Below are positions 252 to 64,000 of a stretch of DNA of 64,000 nucleotides, in pieces. The notes under the pieces are model-generated. The model was given only the letters and a program-made list of their open reading frames with translations, was not told the origin of the DNA and searched no databases. Origin of the DNA: Ascidiella aspersa. Taxonomy: Eukaryota. The DNA is taken from NCBI GenBank assembly GCA_963924565.1, contig OZ004615.1, forward strand, positions 14,508,001-14,572,000. The letters run 5' to 3'. The first letter of the stretch is position 1; every line of letters starts with the position of its first letter. The translations under genes were made by a program, and so were the position numbers.

Positions 252-3200
252 CTTACATCGAACAGTCTTCAGGTGTGTTCGCTTGAAGAGTCCTTGGAGA
301 GTTGCAAAAGCGAACTTTCGGTATACGTCAACCAGCTTGGCCAGACTCACACCAGCTTCCAACAACAGGTCGCCGCAAAATGCTCGCAGGTGCGTATTGC
401 CTTTAGGAACTTTATTATTACTAAATACATTTGTTTTTTGTATCGATTTTCGGGTAGCATTCATTAAAGTCGAGACTTTAAATCCGAGCAACTGTACACC
501 GAAAGCCATCGCAGACTCACCGAATCTGTTGATCTATGATGCAAGCAGAGCAGACTAGAAAAACAACTAGCCTGCAGTGAGGTTCGAACTCACGACCTCC
601 GGTCAAGCCGGGACCGTCGCTCTACCAACTGAGCTATACAGGCTCAGAAGGGAACGAGTCGAGAAACAACCATACGCTAATGCTTGCTCAATCTGTTAGT
701 ACAAGCAACCTCATTGAAGGGGATCCACAGTACCATATCATTTATTCTATGAAACATTCACACAAATGTGAAGGGCTTCGAAGGGCTAGATCTCAGCTAT
801 TAACACACATTTGTGTGAATGTTTCAACGAGCAACTGTTTAGATTTTGTCGAAATTGGTTGCAATAATCTCACTGGTCTGTGACTCCAGAGTGAAAAAAA
901 TATATGAAAGTTTAGGTAAAATTATGGTATTAGTCTCTATTTACCTCTATTTACTTTGTTTTATTGAGTATATTTAAGAACCCATAATCATCAACACTAA
1001 TTCATGCTCCCTTAAAAATATATTTTTGTCAATTGAAGACAAATCTGCACAAACTTTCGCTTCGTGCTAAACTTGTTTGGCTTTATGGTAGCATATGTTT
1101 CAGGACGCTTTGTTTTTTAAATTTGTTTTATCATGATTGCACTTCAAATTTAAAATGTTTGTCGATTTAAATTAGATTTTTATTTTCTTTCCAAGCGCCA
1201 AATTTGTTAAACCCTCGACGTAAATTTATTTAAACTACATTTAAGTTGCTCAGTTTATGTCGTGATTTTCCAAAGCCATATTTTATAGTTGTTATGCCGT
1301 CTCCCAACAAGCATCTTAAATCAAACCCCTGTTCTGTTGTAACATCGGGAGCGTTTAAAAAATCTGTCGACCCAAAAGGGGCGCTAGTACAAAGGTTGGG
1401 AAACGCTGTTTAAAAAGTAATTTTTGAAACATGATTGTAAATTTTTAAGGTATGAAGATCGTTCAGATTGTGTTTTAAAGCTGTGTATAACAAAATCACA
1501 CGGAAAAGTCATTAGTCTTTGCGATGGTTATTATGTGTAATTTTATCCTTGTTATGCGTCATTTTAAAATCAGACCTACAATCACAGCTATCCTCCATTT
1601 TTTTCTTTTTTTTGGAACACACAAAAAGATCAAAAATCGTTTAAATAAGATCTAAAGCTGTCGAAATGTAAATTATTTGGAATAAGGCCTAAATGGCTCA
1701 AATAACCCCGAATGCTGTAGGTAGAGGGTATTGGACAATTAGGGGACACCTGTATAGCATCGACCGTTTTTGTGTTGATCTTTGGACGCCCTAGTTTGGC
1801 CGGCGCAGTTGGGGTGCCGGATTGTTTGTCTCTGTTTGTTTGGGGTTAGTGGGTTGAGGGGAATGGTAGGGGTTAGAAATTGGGTTAGGGTTAAAATTAT
1901 TAGGGAAGTTAGTGTTGTCGTAAGTGGTAGGGTTTGGGGTAGGTAAATAGTTGTATAGGCCTGATGCTGACCATTTAAGTCTTATTCCGACGGATTTGGG
2001 ACCTATTCCGATTCAGACGGTTATTACAACTATTATGGGTATTAGGCCTATTTTAGTCGATGTTGTTTTTATTTCGGTTAATGGTTGAAGTTTGATCTAG
2101 ACGTTATTACAAGTAATACATTTATCGTTACGTTATAATTTGTGTTAATGTATAGGGGTGTTCTGTAACAAGTTAAAGACATAAATAATGCTGCGTTCAG
2201 TGACTAAAAGGAAATAATATTATACTGTACCTAATTTACCAAGCAGGTGTTATAGTTTACATATTTTATTAGAATATATAGTGAATTTGTATTATCACAG
2301 ATTGCTCGTCTGGAAAGCGAGGCTAAACTCGCACAGAGCGCTATTCTGGAGGAGAGTAGGAAAAGAGTGCAACTCGAAGGAGCACTCCAGGAGCGCCACG
2401 TGATGATAGAGCAGGCTGCATCACGCATCGCTGAGCTCGAGGAGTCCCAGACGACACTTCAATCTAAGGTAAGTCTGACCATCAACTTTATGCGTAAAAT
2501 TAAATAAATTCAAAAATGTAGGAAGTTTTAAAATCTATTGGTTGTTTAAAAAAAAGATGAGTCAAAATCGGCAAATAATCGGTACCTTAGGCGTACGAAA
2601 GCGACGTTGTGCTTGTACTTTAAAAACTTGAATAGAACAAGAAGTAGGAGCTGCATCAAATAGGGAAAAAGAGCCGCACAAGGCTTGTGTTACCCACCGG
2701 TTGGCCACCCCCACTGCAGTACACTAAAAATAAGGATGAAATCTCTTAACCTTATAGATAGTGTTTTATAACGTGTACGATCGAGTAGAACTGAAAATTA
2801 CTGGACCCGATCCGACACTAAACTTTTATCAGTGTACAATAATTTATTAATAACACAGTGGCTTCAAGGTTGGGCTTAAGCGCTCGCCCGCTCGCCAATG
2901 CGAGTGCAAATCGCTCCTGGCGAGTGCTGATTGACACCCACTCGCCCGACTGGCGAGTGGCTTCGGCGAGATATTTAATTAGTTGGTGTAGGTAGGACAA
3001 CTTGTGTTAAGCACCACTAAAGCAAAATATTACTTATCGCCAGTTATAATACGGTTAATCGAAGTCAGTCACATTCGAAACTCGCAAAAAAAACTCTTTG
3101 TCCCGTTTTAAATAATCGTTTACCGGCAAACAATCAAAGACGTCATTGCTGCAGTGTTAGATAGTTATGAGGTTGATTGTTTAACTTAAACGTTGTTAAT

Positions 3201-24697: not shown

Positions 24698-26997
24698 GTC
24701 AGTAGATTTATTTAAACGATGCTGCTATATATTAAAAAAACACTGCACCTCTCTAACTTATATATATAAATTACAATGAACGTGTAATACGGCATCATAA
24801 TATAAACAAGGAGCTATACTGTGGCTAACAGTGCGAGTTCATTTTCTTTTTAGTCCTGAGCCGCGCGTAAGTTTTTGATGCGCAAAAACGATGCAATCGC
24901 AAGCGTCGATAACGTCAGGGAGACAGAGATTTGCCGCATATCGCTATGTTCCGCTTTCACCTTTACGAGCACGCGCGCGAGCAGCAATCGCGAATAAGCG
25001 AGCCATTAAACTCATTCGCTTAACCGCCACCCGTCCGCGATTAAGCGGCACGTTGCACACGGAAGGTGCGCCGAGCGTACGCCAAGGACCCAGCCATTAA
25101 CGCGCCATTTTCCTGGTGTTTTCGTTGCAGAATCGGCTGCATTATTTATGCCACTTTCCTTCACGCCTTCCCCGCTTGAATGTTCTAGCGCCATCGTCTG
25201 GGCAAGACGCTAAGGTATAATGTGACACTCGTCCGAAAGTCCATTCTCCGGGCAGGGCAGGTACAAAGTTCAATATTGAACAATTAAAGCAGTGATTAAA
25301 AAGCAAACGCAAGGTTAATATATTTCAACAGTAATATTTACAAATAACGCCACAGGAACGTGCTTTAGTTATATGTACTATTGAGATATTTTATATTAAC
25401 TATTAAGAAGTTACCAAAGATTAATTTAAACAGCCAATATTTTTTACTTTTTTACAAACATTTACTATAACAGTTGTAATTTGCGAATAAGATGAAAGAT
25501 GTTACTTAATAACAACGTGCATCAAAATCTCATCTGACACAATTTACCTATTTTTGTGGAGGTATTTAAATACGGAAGCCTAAAATCATGCAAACGTGAA
25601 TCCCTATAATCGACACGAGCTAATTGAGTTTTGCAGTAAGAGCTTAATTATGTCGAGTAGGATTTTCGTCCAAGTCCATGTTTCCACGGCGTCTTGTCAA
25701 TCTAGATTGCCGCTGTCGCATAATCGCCCGAATCAATCGCGATATGTTGCCACGGAGAAGGGCGAGGCGGGGTCGCGGGCGACGCCGAAAAGTAAATTCG
25801 TCCAAAACTTTTGGCGCAGAGTGCGTAACCGGACACCCCTCCCCTAATGCTCCGATGGCGAAAAATGTGAAGAAAATTCTTGCAAAAGAATCCCAGGCGC
25901 CAGGCGATGCATATCTGTTTAAAGGATAAATAATGTAATAGATGAGCCGGTTTCTGATTGAAAATTCGCCGGAAAAAATTTTACCAAAACGACTGCGATG
26001 CATGGTTAACGATGAATAATGTAATAGTCGATCTAGCTTCTAGCCTATTCCTTTCTGAAGTAATGTTTACGCAACTTTGCGTGGACCATCGCGTTCGGCG
26101 TCTTTAACGCAAGGTGAAATCATATCTTCGATTAAAGTATTCAAGTTTTTTATTAAGATTTCGGCGATAGTCGGCAAATGGATCTCGTATAACCACGTCG
26201 CCCAAAACTATCGATTTGGCGCGAGTGCGCGAATTTTAGTTTTTAACAAAGGCCTTAAAAAACTGCCGAAAATAGAACAAAGTATGTAGTTTACGAAACA
26301 GTGTCAGGTACAGATAAACGTGGGTTATGTACGAATCTAACGCATTTAAACTAGTGCTTTTCCATTTGCGATAGATTAGAGTTGATAGATTAGACCTATG
26401 TCGGTCGCCATTTTGATTTCTGCAATATGGACGATGTTGAAGTCCGTTCAGGAAAGCACTATTAAAGCGCATTTGCTCATTATATCGTTTAATAACAAAA
26501 ATTAATAAATTATGCTAAATTATTTTAATGAACGAATCATTACGATTGCAAAGTTTTCACGGTTTGTAAAAATCCATTAGGTTTCTTTCAAGATTTAAAA
26601 AGTATTAATTCCCGACGATTGACAAAGGTGTTGACTTTTTTGTGAAAATGCACAAAAACATGTACATTGAACTTAAATGTAAAATTGTAGTTTATAATTT
26701 GTAGTTTGGCAGTTACCCAATACAACTGGCTATTTTTGTTATTTCCTTAAAAATTTATTCTTTCATCTAACGCCTGGAGTATTTTTTGTGATACATTTCT
26801 TCTATAATTGAAAACGAGACAATATTGCTATGCTTACAAATTATCCTATCAGGTTTACCCTTGAAAGTTTGTTCCGCCTTCAGCGTGATACCTCTTCGTA
26901 GGAAGTCCAGGATTGGCGCAGGGTTGAAAATTAATGTTTTAGTCCAACGTTATAACACTGCTTTATATGTTGCAGAAATAATAGTTTAAATATCACA

Positions 26998-29900
26998 ATG
27001 GAAAGCAAGACTTTTCATCCGAATCTGTTGAAAGCCAAATTAAAGCAAACCTCGATTCCGATGGCACACCAACTACACAACCTGACGTCATCTTCTGGAT
27101 CCTGGGGAGCAGACGAAAAATTAGGAGGAGACAAATTAGCGTTGCCTACAGAGAGAAACAGCAACAACAATTCACGTCATCACTTGTACAGTGGCCAAAT
27201 TAACAGCAACAACCAGCAGCAGATGTTGGATCGCTGTTTGGATAAGTACGTTGATGTATCTGATGACGATGACTTTGCTTTCCACGAGGAAGATGAAGGA
27301 GACGATGGTGATGATGGCATTGTACTGGACGGCGACCAGGACGACGAGTCTTTGGTCGATCTTGATTTTGGTGCTGACTTTCTGCATGACAACCGGGAAG
27401 ACGATAATCGTGCGGCCCACGGCGGCTTGTCACGGAAAGATTCTAATGCAAAGAGATTTGAGAGAAATGATGACGGCAACTGTCTTAACGATTCCGGCAT
27501 CGGATGCGAACAGAGCAATTCCAGCGGTAACGTCACTGCACTCACACATAATCGTCAAAAAGAACAGGAAAACAACCACATGATGTTCTCTTTTCTATCA
27601 TCGGATGAAAACATTAAAGGTATAGCCTTCTAATTAAAAGTATATAACTGTAAAATGTGTTGTTTATGCTTGAAAGTATTTCACATGACTTAATCTTGAT
27701 AGGAAATTCTAAGTAGCGCTGACTTTATACCATCTTCTAAATAAGTAAGTTATTGTTCTTGCAATAGACTGCGCTAAGCAAACGTCCAATTCCAATGCAA
27801 AACTTGCATCTCTTTCGCCTCTACATTTTCAGAAATAAAACAAGGCTGTTCGCATTTGGTTAGGAAGCAAAAACTCTTTTTCTCGGGCTTTTAGATCGCG
27901 TCATCTAACCTAATTTAAGGGAAATTACGATCAATTTTGCAGTCGGTGCACGCCATAATCCCGTGTGGCAGGCAGTCCACCGAAATCAAATTTGTGTCGA
28001 TGTTTCGAAGCTACCCGAAGAACAAAAATGCACTTACTTGTAGTACATTTTTGATTATAATTGTCAAAGTTAACTTTGGAAAAATTTGTAAACGAATATT
28101 ATTATCAAACCTGTAAATAGTAAATAACCATACGCAACCAGGGACTGATCTAGGATTTTTGTTTGGGAGAGGGAACTTTTTTCAGAGATGACGTCACGAA
28201 TATACGTCATAACGTGACGTCATAAACTAATAATCCTAAAATCATTTGTTGTTCTTAAGCGATGTCGTTCGCTAATACAAAGCTGATATCAGTTCAATCG
28301 CGCACAACGCAAACAACTGCGTACACTTTGCACTGGCAAAATATTTTAATTTAAAAAAATACGCGACCACTTGGCCACATGAAAAGGATACGAATGTTGT
28401 TCAAAATAACGTCGTTGATGGACTAACTTCATGAGACAGAAAAATTGATAATGAACAGGAAAATGAACTTTGTATTCTTTATGAGTCACACGGCGCAACT
28501 TGTCGTATCATTCATAGCGCCTTTGAAAATAGACTTCTTTAAAAGACCAAGCATAGTACAAGGGGATAGAAGTTTTAAACTTTTTGGATTTACATATAGT
28601 AAAGACTGCGACCTCGTGCCTCATGATTTACCCCTATGCTACCCAATGGCGTATGTTTTCGAAAGTAAAAATCTCCCAGCACGCCGCAATTTTTTTAAAA
28701 AGCTATCGCTTGTAACTTTGATTTGTTTTTATTTCTCTAATAGTAATATAACAATAATAGCCCAGTTTACCATAAAAGTACTAGCTAGGAGATAAGTGTA
28801 GTCTTTATAATGACATAAACAGCGACCTCAGCAAATAGGCGGCGCGAGCACTAAGGGGGTATCATGGTGCCAGGTGGACGACTTTCCATTCAATATTAAT
28901 TCGTTGTTTGACCATAAAGAATTCCGAAGATGTGTCGCACACAGAATATCCACCAGCAAGTGGTTGCTAGTTTGCCGGCCAACCGTAAAGTGCCCGGTGT
29001 ATATAAATATTTTATCGGCACGAGCCTGGCCATTGGCTTTTAGTAATCTCGCACATGTTTTCGGTATAAATCTTTGACACACTCGTAGTGTCAGCGTCGT
29101 TGTTTACAGCATAAACGAAAGCGACTTGTAACGATGTAGTGAGACTTATTGCTGTGTATAAAAGTACGTGTAAATAATTAAAATAAACAAAAGCTAAACT
29201 ATGTATATATAAATAACGTTCAACTTATTACTGGGCAACTCTACAACTATAAATGATCGGAATCATAGTTTATATTTCGGATTATTATAACTCGCATGAA
29301 TACATTTGCCACCGACTATTCGCCTTTATCTTTACAACTAAAATATGAATACATGTTTTAAGATGCTACAATGCAGTACTTGAAGGCCATTTTAGATTTC
29401 ATTCGTTCTATCGCCATTTGAACTGTTTTAACATTGATTTTCAAATATTCACATAAATTAAAAAAAATGCATTAATTTATGTAATTTAGTAGGGGTATCC
29501 AAGTTAAACGATAAGCAAACCGTACAAGTACGTGTCATCCTACTACGCCATAGTTATTTTGAAAAATAAAATAAAACCAAGGCCAAGTGCCACGATTCTC
29601 TTTCACTATCCAACAGCGCGGCTTGTCAACTTAATGTACAATCGCAACAAGTTTCGGAAATGTTTCCTTCCCGTTTCGTCTTGTTCTTACATGAGGAGCG
29701 CATTGTTCGGCATGAAAGTCAAGCGTCTACGCAAATAGACTTTCGCTACCCGACTTGTGATCTACGCGAGTCGCTTCGCACCTAGCCCTGCGTGAAAGCA
29801 AAGACGCCGGTCACGGAATCGACGTTTCCGCAAAAGGACGGCTAATGAGAAGAATATTTGTTTACATTGGCCTGTGAGGGAACTCGGCAACCGTTTAATG

Positions 29901-32900
29901 TTTCGCCCGCAACCTTGCGCTTTCTTTCCATGTAAAAAAAGAATCGGTATATATAGGCTTAGGTTCGACACATGACCAACGTATTCGACTTTGAATCGTA
30001 TTGTAAAAGTAAACCTGAAAGTAACATCGCGAAATGATTCTCATCACTGAAAATTTTTCAAGCGAAATGAAACTCGCTAGCAGCACGTATAGCCTATGTA
30101 GTGCGTTGTCAACCAGTGACTTTAGCTGCGACTCTGAAAACAATCTTGCTGGAATTGAAGGAGCACAAAGTTCTCTCCCACTAATCAATAACGAAAGTAA
30201 CGAACTCGGTGTTGGGAGTAACAGCGAGAAATTTCGCAGAATTCTAATTGCCCTGAGTAAGTTTAAAACTGGCATCCCTTCATTAGATTAAGTTTAGTCC
30301 ATGAAATTCAAATTTTGCTTAAACAATCAGTACTGCTTTTGAAACTTTCCGAAATTAAAATAGGTACCGGTATAATTTTTTTTCAAAGACTTATTTTGTG
30401 AGGTGTAATGCACCGAATTGTAACATTAACCCTTTTATTCCAGCCGAAATACCCAAATGCACCGGATGCGACTTGCACATCTTCGACCGCTACATCCTCA
30501 AAGTACAGGAGAAGCCATGGCACGCACAATGCCTAAAGTGCGGCGAATGCGGCTGCCAGCTCACCGACAAATGCTTCTCAAGGGGAAACTATGTCTACTG
30601 CAAGGAGGACTTTTTCAGGTGGGTTTTGTCGTTGGCGAACCACACAAAAATATAGATAAAATGTGGTATCCAATCTAGCAATATGGAGGCTGACACTTTG
30701 GCAATAAAAATGGCAATTTAGAAGTGTGGCCATTTGGAGGCACAACAGAACTTTAACGAACTTGCAATATGCATTCTCACAAAATACTGCAAAATATATT
30801 TACGTCTCAATACACCTTATTGATAAGCTAGTTAGTTGTACCCGGTGTATATAATAGTCCATTAATTTTAAAGCAAATTTATGGAAAACAGACTAACTTC
30901 TTAAAAAATGATATATTTTATGTCTTAATTACAATTTCTCTGACGAGGCGATTAAATCTGTGTAAGGGAGGCTAGTATGTGCAATAAAGAGCAATATAAT
31001 TTATGTATAGAGCGACAGCGTGTTTGCTGTTATACACGCTAGACGAGCAAAGCGACTATACATCGTGTTTATGGCTAATTCATGACCGCGGGCCGTAAGT
31101 TTTTCTGCGCTTATCAGCATTGTCGCGAGCCCAAGGTCTTATCGGTCCGCACAAAATGACCCTTTACCGCCATTTGATCACTATCATATTCTTTCTGCAG
31201 GCGACACGGTACTAAGTGCGCCGGCTGCCAGCAAGGAATTCCGCCCACAGAAGTCGTGCGAAGGGCGCAGGACAATGTTTACCATCTGGACTGCTTCCAA
31301 TGCTTTATGTGCGAACAGGAGCTGGGAACTGGTGACCAATTCTACTTGCTCGATGATAATCGCTTGGTGTGCAAAAAGGATTACGAACAGGCAAAATCCA
31401 GAGGTAAACATCTTAGAATATTTTAAAATACATTACTTTTCGCAAAGTTATTAAAAAACACATTCCTGATTGAACATCCGGTGAGAAACGTATTTATGGC
31501 ATGTTGATCCAACAGGATTCAAAAACCCTGTCGTATTGTTATTTGAAATAAACTAACAACGGAGATAGGATTCTTTGATTATGCTGACGTTTGTCTACAA
31601 ACACAAAAAGGGAACAGTTTTGATATTTAAAACGCCATCGATTTTAACGCACTTTATCTTTAAAAGTATGCCGGCAGTGTTGTCAATAATATCAAAATGA
31701 CGCATTTTGCGAGCTATCCGATACTTTGCAGAGATGCGAATTTGAAATAATGACATGCTCGACAAAACCATTTCCGCATCTCAAGTTGCACTTATTGACG
31801 GCGCGGTAAATTCCACAACGACGCAAATGGGACGTTTAAGTCGTAAATTCGGGACTACGCGAGTCGCCATCGGGCTCGCGAAACCAATATTTCCCCGCGG
31901 AGCGCTTGCCAGCGTTTTCCCGCTGATCGATATGCAAGCCGCTTATCCGATTAGATGAAGGTATATCCGCGTCCAAACGACGTGGCTCCTTTCTCGAAGG
32001 CCGTAGTTGCCCCTAGCTTTGATCGCCTGGATCGATATCGTTGCCAACCATGAAGAAAACGAAATAGCCCATTTCCTGGGATGGTTTTAGCCACGTTACT
32101 GCATTCAAATATGACGTTATTCATTCGTGCGAAGCTTTGCTTCGAGCACAGCCTAATGATGGACAAAAATTAAACGTCAATGGTCGTCTGTCCTTACCGG
32201 CCTGTGGTGATTAACAATTCTGTCTCTGTTCTCAGATCTGGATATGGAAAACGGTTTGAAACGCCCGAGGACGACCATCAGCGCCAAGCAACTCGAAACG
32301 TTAAAGATCGCATACAACCAGAGCCCCAAGCCCGCTCGGCATGTCCGCGAGCAATTAAGCTCCGACACTGGATTAGACATGCGCGTTGTTCAGGTAATAA
32401 AGTTTTCCTTATGTATCGGCAACCCAAAGCAAGAAAATGTTCTTTCGGTATTTCGACTTCGGATTAAGTCTCGGGGTGCTTACACGATGGTGTCGGGTGT
32501 TGCTGGCAGCATGGCTTCTGCAATAAATTCATGCACGATCGTAGTTCTTAAAATGTCGAAGCGCACGAAAATTGCTCGTGTCTAATCTAAGGGATTATTT
32601 TGATCCAGCGTTCTATAATTGATGTTTTAAAAGCAAAATTGTAAACTGTGTATACTGGAAACGGTTGGACTGTAAACATTTTTATATTGGGGTCAAACTT
32701 AGAAATGATTACGCAAGAGGTACCGGTAATAGCATATTGACTTATTTTGGTAGCAAATGCTCCTGGCCGATAACCTTGTACAAGCGTATTCTTATTTTTT
32801 ACTTAACCATTACCGTTTATGCAGGTCTGGTTCCAGAACAGACGGGCAAAGGAGAAAAGACTAAAAAAGGACACGAACCGACAAAAATGGGGCGAGTTTT

Positions 32901-33773
32901 TTCGTAATTCAAACAACAGCACAAGCGGATCGAGTGCGCCACCTGTCGGCGGAAAGAGAATGAGAGGAAATAGTGACAGAAAAGGAGTTTCCCAAGAATC
33001 TACCCTAACCACATCACAACCTCCGTTGGGTGTCAACGGTCTAGTTGAAGGCTCATTTCCAACAAATTCTACCGGTTAGTAAAACTATTGTAAAATATAG
33101 CTTAGACGTAGATGGCGGGGTTGCGATATGTAAGCCTATTTTTAAGTCTTACTTACCTTATAAGAGCAGAAAAGTCGAACGGCTGATCAAAATTCATCTA
33201 CTTTGTTTTGCAGATTTTCACCCGATGGTTACCGAACTAAACAACCCAGCCAACAGAGTAGATACCCTCTCTATTCACGAAGGTACGTTCAGGGCTGGAT
33301 GCGACAATGAACAGGCTAACTTCTTATGCAAAATTGATGATGCGGCGTGTGCTGGTGGTAGCATCGGACAGAACTGTGCCTCCAATCAACCACAAACATT
33401 GCCAATGGATTACCAGGCGGCACCCCGTGCTTACGGAGACGGCCTTTCACCAAACTGCTTTGAGGGACAGACTGAACTAACCACTGGCAATCTGTTTTTT
33501 CCTGGTCGATTAAACGAAATCCTACCTAACCAAAGCAACCATCATAGCCTTCAGCATTCGAATAGTAGGTTGACAGTTGACCCTCGATCGGTCGGTGGTA
33601 TTAACCTGTCAGTTATGAATCACGGCCAGTTTCAAGGCGGTTGTACCGACGCATACCACATAAGGCACAACGAAGACGGAACGTCAAATAGTAGTGGCCA
33701 ATCAAATTTAAGCGACATTTCTTCAAGCCCGAGCTCGTGGTTCGGTGAATTCGATCACATTCCCCATTATTAG
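26998..33773 (+). CDS. Lhx3: LIM-homeobox protein Lhx3/4, long N-terminal isoform (~655 aa)
   Basis: Exons 26998-27619 (acidic N-terminus), 30444-30618 (LIM1, [16 protein letters not shown]...WHAQCLKC), 31201-31403 (LIM2, [30 protein letters not shown]), 32236-32393 and 32825-33074 (homeodomain, [16 protein letters not shown]...[18 protein letters not shown]), 33214-33773 (ends [12 protein letters not shown], like the Lhx3/4 SWLDEVDH tail). All intron phases agree. Confidence 0.93.
29580..30033 (+). promoter_or_regulatory. Candidate proximal promoter of the short Lhx3 isoform
   Basis: CpG-rich, with Fox site TGTTTAC (29859), TATATATA (29948) and Tcf-type CTTTGAA (29989). Confidence 0.45.
30034..30256 (+). 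CDS. Lhx3: Alternative first coding exon of Lhx3/4 (short isoform, ~522 aa)
   Basis: ATG-initiated open frame ending ...KFRRILIAL at a consensus donor (A|GTAAGT, 30257) in phase 1, matching the LIM1 acceptor at 30444. TATATATA at 29948. No phase-compatible acceptor was found that would make it a cassette exon. Confidence 0.75.
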
Positions 33774-40269: not shown

Positions 40270-58007
<17,738 letters not shown>

Positions 58008-62159: not shown

Positions 62160-62545
62160 ACACAGGTTCCTATCAGCCTATGTGTAACGGGTTGTAGAAA
62201 AATTTAACAGGACCAATTTAACTACTTTACGGATGGACGATTCGCGGTTCAATGTAAAAAAACTAAAGGAAATGTGAACTAACCCAGACACGGATACGAA
62301 AGGTCAAGCTACCAGTGTGTTATTAATCTAAGAAATAAGATTGAGACGACTCTATCACTGGCCAAAGAAGAGCTCAAGGGAGAGATACAAGAGGTATTAT
62401 ACAAAAAGGCCAAACCACGGTGGATGGAAGTCGGTGATAAAACTCTACTGCTGCTGAACAAGTTGCTTCTCTAATGAAATGGCCCATTCACAGTTGTGGA
62501 GAGACGAGGACAGTGTGATTATGTTCTGAATGTGAATGAAAAAAA
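62160..62545 (+). mobile_element. Gypsy integrase pseudogene fragment (core end plus GPY/F region)
   Basis: Frameshifted translation: YQPMCNGL/EKFNRT, LLYGWTIRGSM, SSYQCVINLRNKIETTLSLAKEEL, KKAKPRWMEVGDKTLLLL, NGPFTVVERRGQCDY. Confidence 0.8.
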
Positions 62546-64000
62546 TCGTGGTATTAGTTTAGAACATTGCCTCGATGCGACAGATAAGTCTCCTCGCAGC
62601 CAGCATTCGAGTTCTTTGTCTGTTAGAACGCCTTTTTCAAGCGTTTTCCACGGTGCATTATACTCGTCGTCAAAAAGTTTTGACATCCATTTAATATTCA
62701 GCGACATAATATATGCGTCAACGTCCAACATATTTGCTCCTCCGTGTTCAGTATTTGCGCATATTTTTGTTCGCTTAACTCTCTCCCATCTATACCCCCA
62801 TATAAACTGAAATAATTTCGTTTTTAGTTTACGCATCCATGCTTCGGGCAGGTTGACCGGAAGAACACTAATTTTGTAAATTAGGGTGGGAATCACTAAG
62901 CTTTTTAGGATACAAATTCGTCCCAGAAGAGTTAGCCCCCGAGCGGACCAAATGTTTAAAACTGCACTAATTTTATTTATAACTTCACAAAAGTTAAGCG
63001 GAAACAGTTCCTTTGGGTTTTTTAGTGGAATTTTTACACCTAAGTACTTAAATGAGTGTTCTGGCCACTCGAGGCCTTTGTTCGCGTAAGGCTTTTCTGT
63101 CGAAGAGCGATTGGCTCCTATCATGAAATGCAAGCGATTTTTGCATATTGATTTTACATCCGGACATGTCTCCAAATTTATCTAGCACACCAAATATTCG
63201 TTCGAAATCTTTCTGTTTGTCTCTTAAAAAGACTAACGTATCATCAGCAAGTAGAGATACTTTAAATTCGTCTCCATTAAGTTGTAGTCCTACACATTCG
63301 TCTTTTCGCAACGCCGTTGCTAGACATTCGATACATCGCAAAAAAAGCGTCGGAGATAATGGTCGCCTTGCCTGACACCTCTTTCGATTTTAAATTCGCG
63401 CGACAAAAAGTTATTGTTGGTTATTTTACAGGTAGGTTCCCGCATTTTATCCAGTTTATTAGGTTATGTCCGAAGCCAAAATTTCCTAATGCTGCGTAAA
63501 TAAAATCCCAACCAACAGTGTCAAACGATTTGTAAATGTCCAAAGATAGTATGGAACCCGGAATTTTATAAAAATTGGAGGAATCGATAATATCAAAGAG
63601 CAGGCGAAGATTATCCCCAATATATCTACCCTTCATAAAGCCATTTTGGCCTCGACTGATTAGGAACTCAATATTGGCTTTTAACCTGTTGTTTATAACT
63701 TTTGACTCCACACTAAGCAAAGAGATGGGGCGGTGATTAGTTATCAGCGAAGGATCTTTATGTGCTTTGGGGATCAGTGTTAGGCTACTACACCTTGCGC
63801 TTGAGTTTGACTAAATTTACCGGTTTCTTCAGTATACACCCCAGCGTCGTAAAACAAGGCTTTTATCTCATGCCAAAAAGTCTGAAAAAATTCTGCCGGC
63901 AATCCATCAAGGCTCGGGGACTTATTCCTCGGCATAGTGTTAATTGCCGCTAGAATTTCCTCAAGCGTGATTAGGCGCTCGGTCGATTCTTTCTGCATTG
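62545..64000 (-). mobile_element. Tx1/L1-clade LINE ORF2 reverse transcriptase relic (frameshifted, runs off the window)
   Basis: ORF pieces 63780-63998 (KSPSLDGLPAEFFQTFW), 63421-63720 (QNGFMKGRYIGDN, LDIYKSFDTV), 63048-63341 (SLLADDTLVFL, SGCKIN) and 62519-63175 (FKYLGV, LTLLGRICILKSL). Confidence 0.92.

Follow-up and report, generated by a model that had tools for sequence, protein, structure and literature searches.

The mobile element found at positions 485–838 of the window, that is, the whole 64,000-nt stretch of DNA analysed here, is one truncated, partly inverted copy of a dispersed non-coding tandem element. This element is very probably a passenger of Penelope-like elements (PLEs), borrowing the reverse transcriptase (RT) and the GIY-YIG endonuclease of a Neptune/Nematis-type PLE, and the template from which it is copied would probably be a unit-length (monomer) RNA circle. 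As for the way in which such a circle could arise, a retroelement class hijacking two host machines is tentatively proposed: tRNA splicing (TSEN/RtcB) would replace the hammerhead, and the PLE RT would copy the resulting circle. The probability of the whole modelled chain, TSEN/RtcB circularisation included, is put at roughly 0.38–0.4.

The window stretch matches 137 places (40 of the 2,854 candidates were scored). A 20-mer near the element end had 413 exact matches and a 21-mer of the B box 2,297, vs. none for the reversed control in either case. The element is multi-copy, non-autonomous and mobile, in agreement with the sequence-only reading, with hundreds to thousands of dispersed copies. 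A 345-nt stretch (L011:1433-1777), carrying the tRNA at unit positions 196–270, was taken as the reference unit. The unit occurs head to tail with a length of 345–354 nt, subfamilies being distinguished by unit lengths of 345, 348 and 353–355 nt, and older subfamilies repeat a 140-nt leader-plus-tRNA block. Five older variants (L316, L324, L333, L095 and L106) hold two to four such blocks in tandem, the upstream ones being followed by a T3–T4 run and a linker and not by T5. Duplicate loci were removed before counting (6 in the end-mapping set, 12–14 in later counts). Related units at 90–99% were also found in three sequencing runs labelled as other organisms (X1, X5 and X6), which could reflect either other species or mixed samples.

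In the window, the 11-bp direct repeat CGAGCAACTGT brackets the element on both sides (485–495 and 828–838), and it corresponds to a target-site duplication of 9–11 bp, the final two bases of the repeat doubling as the first two of the element. The complete cloverleaf with A and B boxes, the T5 run five bases after it and the absence of poly(A), all described in the sequence-only reading, were recovered in this copy. The cloverleaf matched the Rfam tRNA model at 53.5 bits (E 5e-10) and was assigned to Ala-GGC by ARAGORN. Two other descriptions stood in part. The 21-bp inverted repeat (750–770/806–826) is perfect, but it is an insertion scar and not a terminal hairpin of the family, having arisen because unit positions 69–89 were copied in both of two opposite arms; a terminal hairpin as a family feature was rejected, the overlaps being variable or missing in other copies. 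Similarly, GAAGGG does occur four times (starting at 647, 716, 770 and 780) but does not represent one repeated motif: at 780 it is the tail motif, carried by the inverted arm; at 716 and 647 it is CCCTTC reversed in the main arm; and at 770 it is a product of the fold-back junction. The parts of this copy are listed in Table 1.

Table 1. Parts of the element copy present in the window, in positions of the whole stretch.
Feature	Positions	Strand	Remarks
Left target-site duplication	485..495		9–11 bp; last 2 nt overlap the element end
Main arm, unit positions 69–345, copied from end1 (494–496)	494..770	-	97% to L011:1433-1777
75-nt 3' module, from tRNA 3' end to end1	494..568	-	Positional likeness to PLE hammerhead-cut spacing; weak sequence likeness
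T5 run, likely Pol III terminator	559..563	-	T5 in 74/86 last units
tRNA-like cloverleaf with A and B boxes and non-canonical anticodon loop CCGGCUU	569..643	-	Acceptor stem varies, pairing kept
Loop 32–38: self-complementary CCGG (608–611) and three bases (605–607)	605..611	-	Predicted part of bulge-helix-bulge
Leader and linker 5' of the tRNA	644..710	-	Co-duplicated with the tRNA in older 140-nt sub-repeats
Long tail hairpin, 3' side, unit positions about 69–135	704..770	-	Predicted fold
Fold-back junction joining the arms, GAAG-GG-CTTC mini-palindrome	770..779		Sequence
Inverted arm, unit positions 38–89, copied from end2	775..827	+	Carries tail motif common to PLE families B and G
Second copy of unit positions 69–89	806..826	+	Pairs with 750–770 as 21-bp inverted repeat
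Right target-site duplication	828..838		Direct repeat

The window is animal DNA, LIM-homeobox and protein-kinase exons having been recognised among its open frames. The former belong to a Lhx3/4-like gene (26956–33773, plus strand) and the latter to a PKN-like kinase (46989–56735, plus strand), both recognised from their translations. Broken non-LTR reverse-transcriptase-like frames were also recognised from translations (62519–63810, minus strand). At the insertion site itself, a contig of sequencing run X3 tracks the left flank to position 484, after which its 190 letters bear no likeness to the window; it could represent a different allele of this site, and it differs from the expected empty site, which was not seen among the junctions listed.

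The outer 3' termini of the copies were mapped in two samples. Among 84 loci selected by a motif near end1, a choice that favours end1 and leaves end2 alone unbiased, 103 of the 124 termini were found at two sites, with 60 at end1 (unit end, position 345) and 43 at end2 (positions 87–99 of the next unit), which are spaced by about 90–99 nt. Two outward 3' ends were present in 39 of 85 insertions of this sample, and 10 of 81 arms exceeded one unit. The figures were lower in the B-box sample, made of 60 loci with many old copies: end1 and end2 accounted for 42 of 81 termini, and two outward ends were seen in 17 of 64 insertions. Target duplications were found at 34 of 58 young insertions (23 of these being 12–15 bp long) vs. 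0 of 58 controls. The element therefore inserts as expected of a non-autonomous EN+ PLE, in partial tandems and with inverted arms and target duplications, and it has two 3' ends delimiting an optional tail, the latter feature being weaker in old copies. This insertion layout is that described for PLEs, which, in the accessible text of two reports, comprises partial tandems, an inverted arm and an optional tail (PMC3846280, PMC8557442); a third report, in its accessible part, shows in vitro that a PLE primes at two internal sites and cleaves both DNA strands (PMC11167929).

Concerning the 5' ends, the copies do not begin at the tRNA, in line with what had been read from the window: 38 of the 44 arms reaching unit position 201 continue past position 182. 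Neither tRNA +1 nor the boundary of the unit is marked by a step of 5' ends, which agrees with the earlier statement that this is not an ordinary head-first SINE. The truncation rate is flat through the tRNA start, and the template is therefore not a transcript starting at the nearest tRNA. Also, no indel hotspot marking an RNA junction, including at either tRNA end, was found in the units.

Many PLE families are present in the genome, with RT, a CxxCxxC-type linker, GIY-YIG and a minimal hammerhead core, and with a two-end layout like that of the element. In five of the six PLE families measured, a putative hammerhead cut lies 65–69 nt before end1, near the 75 nt that separate the tRNA 3' end of the element from its own end1. 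The tails of the local PLEs (families B to G) range from 78 to 98 nt, vs. 87 to 99 nt for the element. By targeted alignment, 25 of 30 nt were found to be identical between the element tail and PLE family B at equal offset from end1, none of 1,000 shuffles being as good; for three subfamilies, the corresponding figures were 1–3 per 1,000. Family G, which ends at TTTCATCAA(T) vs. TTTCATTGAA(T) for the element, has a 98-nt tail with a similar predicted long hairpin and two small hairpins in its loop. Its tail match was significant in young copies (1 and 6 per 1,000 shuffles) and not in the old copy; one old element copy matches family B, not G. A covariance model of the element hairpin retrieved family B at E 0.05 and missed two full family-G hairpins at E 5. 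Target duplications of 13–17 bp were found for 17 of 26 PLE-G and 7 of 9 PLE-B insertions. When the unit was compared directly with 85 PLE loci by BLAST, the matches were limited to inserted element copies, a single weak tRNA-like match and short words attributable to chance. Families A, C, D and F were rejected as partners, with no significant tail match, and family E was set aside after a borderline one (19 per 1,000 shuffles).

The 3' end of the element is similar to that of autonomous PLEs of the same genome, through the 30-nt motif in family B and through the end2 sequence and fold in family G, and on this sequence likeness the tail is assigned to the Neptune/Nematis-type PLE clade of this genome. 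Because 150 of the 456 PLE candidates were scored in the survey, the helper would be B, G or an unseen relative. The partner, left unknown in the sequence-only reading, is very probably a PLE in kind, since the ends, inverted arms and tail match PLEs. A few further observations were made on these families. A short inverted stub of the element tail, with an apparent target duplication, appears to be inserted in the AT-rich palindrome of a family G tail (L290:1411-1485, on G000:C3). Family B forms a tandem array with a period of 3,422 bp (G000:C2:30627000-30642000), the frame of which begins in the tail, 131 nt past the hammerhead region. Bacterial-looking GIY-YIG matches (UvrC-like) at L061 (C35) and L062 (C11) suggest contaminant or symbiont contigs.

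Insertions of the youngest subfamily reach 2.7 kb. At L297, a 16-bp duplication encloses seven full units, identical in all 21 pairwise comparisons, together with one partial unit and one inverted arm, and L298 and L300 hold four identical units each. A private variant was found in all six units read at L297 and was absent elsewhere among nine loci, while another was present in four of four units at L300 only. Units and inverted arms are nearer to their own locus than to others, with ranks of 0.28 and 0.24, respectively, vs. 0.5. Older arrays are heterogeneous, their units differing by 11–59 bases. The identical units and the locus-private variants point to rolling-circle copying, and one monomer copied round repeatedly would most simply explain the young arrays. 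In another seven-unit array (L296, G000:C9:13803341-13805890), the run that follows the tRNA is T4 and not T5 in every unit; the 5' end of this array lies at unit position 3, and L014 and L304 likewise begin within 6 nt of end1.

In the 6% of one RNA run that was read, 983 reads mapped to a unit, about equally on both strands; 85% of them extend into unlike sequence, and neither their starts nor their ends pile up. The window copy gave the same picture. This signal is passenger transcription inside other transcripts. A stand-alone RNA of ~80 nt from a solo copy is possible: with its single tRNA unit, the window copy could yield a short RNA, not a ring. No Rfam ribozyme matched the unit at E 10, and no hammerhead core was found on the tRNA strand, a loose antisense match with a 60-nt gap being the only one.

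The cloverleaf is not a decoding tRNA. The anticodon loop of a tRNA has U33 and a purine at position 37, whereas C33 was found in 84 of 90 units and U37 in 62 of 90, which is not the loop of a functional tRNA-Ala(GGC) gene; the score of the mimic (53 bits) is also below the 61–77 bits of the genuine tRNA genes listed. No source tRNA gene was identified: the D arm is Lys-like, and the search retrieved a Lys/Glu cluster alone. A large tandem cluster of tRNA-Lys(TTT) and tRNA-Glu genes occupies G000:C3:31376000-31615000. An alignment was made of 37 of the 87 distinct units, namely the 40 most diverged, less five with large indels, plus two young ones. Two acceptor pairs shift from U-A/G-C through G-U to C-G/A-U between subfamilies, and double changes in the acceptor stem were counted in 13 cells vs. 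4.5 in shuffles (9/500), an excess inflated by related sequences. To judge from these changes, the cloverleaf pairing has been kept. The tRNA, which had been regarded as cargo, is more likely a working part, i.e. a promoter and processing module.

The CCGG at loop positions 32–35 is self-complementary and is kept in 80–86 of 90 units per position, with positions 36–37 varying between subfamilies; this conservation is carried by two main subfamilies. The unconstrained minimum-energy fold of one natural dimer (L298:1585-2024) is an intron-containing tRNA with a full bulge-helix-bulge (BHB). In the predicted dimer fold, the 5' half of unit 1 and the 3' half of unit 2 form one cloverleaf, the intron is exactly one unit, and in the BHB a CCGG helix of 4 bp is flanked by two bulges of 3 nt each. 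Transposed to the window copy from the folding of natural dimers, the loop would supply the central helix and a bulge of the BHB formed with the next tandem unit, and the predicted cut falls between 606 and 605, this copy being a solo one without a partner unit. The intron-tRNA fold was obtained in 14 of 20 distinct natural dimers with intact arms, most of the 14 being near-identical 353–355-nt copies, vs. 1 of 15 dimers with a mutated arm. By subfamily, the full motif was found in one of four intact dimers of the 345-nt subfamily of the window and in one of two dimers of the third subfamily; none of five old pairs with 140-nt spacing showed it. As a control, a genuine Lys tRNA placed in the same spacer folded locally. 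When 76 loop tetramers were compared in silico, the native one alone formed the central helix in register, two others also favouring swapped stems; the computed probability of the central helix is 0.43.

The predicted fold corresponds to a tricRNA/TSEN site, with a BHB at 37/38, a C32:G pair and a 3-nt bulge, and its geometry, the 5' cut lying 6 nt from C32, agrees with that of Drosophila pre-tRNAs; the C32:G pair and the 3-nt bulge are given as invariants of the latter in the available text of one study (PMC6614914). According to the accessible parts of the corresponding papers, RtcB closes animal tRNA introns into circles (PMC6614914, PMC4536317, PMC10485636), and Xenopus TSEN is reported to cut a BHB inserted in mRNA (PMC10485636). 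Genes for TSEN-domain proteins and RtcB were found in the genome. Several points weigh on the other side. Compared with a canonical tRNA, the anticodon arm has about one extra position in an otherwise intact cloverleaf, and this length could upset the ruler of TSEN. The all-GC central helix may be too rigid, to go by the portion of the Drosophila work available (PMC6614914), and local cloverleaves should fold first during transcription. Also, no peak of 5' ends was found at the predicted cut, with 4 stops among 109 at risk in unit positions 231–235.

The chain proposed here would run as follows. The transcript of a tandem locus would span two units or more; Pol III would probably make it, starting from the first tRNA and reading through one T-run. 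Two tRNA units would then swap anticodon-stem strands, CCGG pairing with CCGG, to give one pre-tRNA, whose intron would be a whole unit closed by a BHB at 37/38. Cutting by TSEN and ligation by RtcB would yield a seamless unit-length circle. The PLE protein would bind the tail hairpin, nick both DNA strands 10–15 bp apart, prime from end1 or end2 and circle the template until drop-off, and priming on both strands would produce inverted arms such as that of the window copy.

Other routes have to be weighed against this one. A PLE passenger could also be copied from a unit-length circle made without tRNA splicing, either through one cut per unit by RNase P or RNase Z or through a Pol III start and stop, followed by a host ligase. 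The identical young arrays fit this route equally well; it would also be consistent with the pairing of the acceptor stem being kept through its changes, and with the position of the tRNA 3' end, which is close to the PLE hammerhead-cut spacing. It is nevertheless considered rather unlikely: both enzymes normally process the same tRNA and would excise it, the indel hotspot is missing at both tRNA ends, and the CCGG loop is left unexplained. A circle could be dispensed with altogether if the template were a linear Pol III read-through RNA of about 430 nt, from one tRNA to the next, and if LTR-like strand transfers, allowed by its repeated ends, produced the multimers. The conserved T5 speaks for such an RNA, as does the transcription of Sm-alpha from the promoter of the upstream unit, described in the part available of one paper (PMC6765202). 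The 5' stops are slightly raised at unit positions 181–200 (16 vs. about 12 expected from the other bins), but not significantly, and seven scarless transfers would be needed at L296 as well as at L297, which makes this reading unlikely.

A passenger carried inside Pol II host transcripts, with arrays homogenised later by local slippage or unequal crossing-over and with the tRNA as passive cargo that may yield a short by-product RNA, would agree with the copies seen within other transcripts on both strands of the RNA run, and PLE ends can mobilise unrelated sequence in trans, according to the text available (PMC3846280). Yet expansion and homogenisation would have been needed at each of five distinct very young loci, between which there are only 0–4 base differences. 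The young arrays also terminate with partial units and with inverted arms, all within target duplications, and the cloverleaf pairing has been retained; this account is judged improbable. The element could also be read as a conventional tRNA SINE that depends on a LINE and has undergone a 5' inversion, or as a DNA element with hairpin ends (recombinase or Helitron). The tRNA-derived A/B boxes, the target duplication and the length below 700 bp fit part of the SINE definition, as given in the accessible text (PMC3531059). The head-first start and the poly(A) or repeat tail are missing, however, and the two fixed 3' ends, the duplicated inverted arms, the tandem units, the PLE tail motif and a hairpin that varies between copies make either version very improbable.

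By definition, SINEs are passengers of LINEs and retrozymes are circles cut by a ribozyme; neither definition covers a PLE passenger that bears a tRNA and has no ribozyme. The element is also a natural minimal substrate for the PLE RT, which suggests that the tail hairpin and the two priming sites are the recognition module, and its very young arrays record single copying events of more than 2.5 kb. If the splicing route holds true, tRNA-intron splicing would be the means by which a selfish element produces its transposition intermediate, and TSEN would gain a non-tRNA mobile substrate in animals. In the literature searched, to which Repbase/Dfam and most subscription journals did not belong, no description was found of a tRNA-bearing, ribozyme-free PLE passenger or of TSEN-made retroelement circles, and no paper proposing a tRNA-splicing route for a retroelement.

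Compared with tRNA SINEs as defined in SINEBase, the element has A and B boxes, a putative internal Pol III promoter, but does not have the tRNA head at its 5' end nor, judging from its PLE-like ends, arms and tail, a LINE partner. The tRNA intronic circular RNAs have the BHB-like TSEN site, closure by RtcB, C32:G pair and 3-nt bulge that are predicted or proposed for the element; in the text available, they are introns of real tRNA genes, of about 40–250 nt at the long end (PMC6614914, PMC4536317, PMC10485636), whereas the predicted 'intron' of the element is a mobile unit of 345–354 nt, inside which lies a second tRNA body. Non-autonomous Chlamys PLEs such as MRC1 also form head-to-tail multicopy insertions with a 3' end like that of an autonomous PLE; they belong to another PLE clade and host, and no tRNA module is described for them in the part of the report available (PMC8557442).

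The EN+ PLEs of Neptune/Nematis type, as portrayed in the accessible text (PMC3846280, PMC8557442, PMC11167929), have in common with the element partial tandems, an inverted 5' arm, an optional tail, two priming sites, an inverted-junction palindrome and target-site duplications of about 8–15 bp. Unlike them, the element has neither an ORF nor a hammerhead, a tRNA-like unit occupying that place, and its tail is about 87–99 nt long vs. the 30–40 nt described. Non-LTR retrozymes, in the available portions of the literature (PMC7229834, PMC7761336, bioRxiv 10.64898/2026.07.22.740005), share the non-coding tandem units of 150–400 nt, a PLE origin and rolling-circle copying, both of these as proposals, and RtcB as the likely ligase. 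They are defined by a monomer-cutting hammerhead in each unit, which the element does not have on its tRNA strand; it carries instead a putative Pol III cassette and a tail motif common to the local PLEs. Sm-alpha and Sj-alpha of schistosomes resemble it in the tRNA-derived Pol III promoter within a tandem unit of similar size and in the need for two units to propagate, as proposed here; Sm-alpha has a hammerhead, and the accessible text mentions neither a PLE tail nor a BHB route for these elements (PMC6765202, PMC2770079). The element is accordingly classified as a non-autonomous PLE variant, neither SINE nor retrozyme, which in its working resembles non-LTR retrozymes and Sm-alpha.
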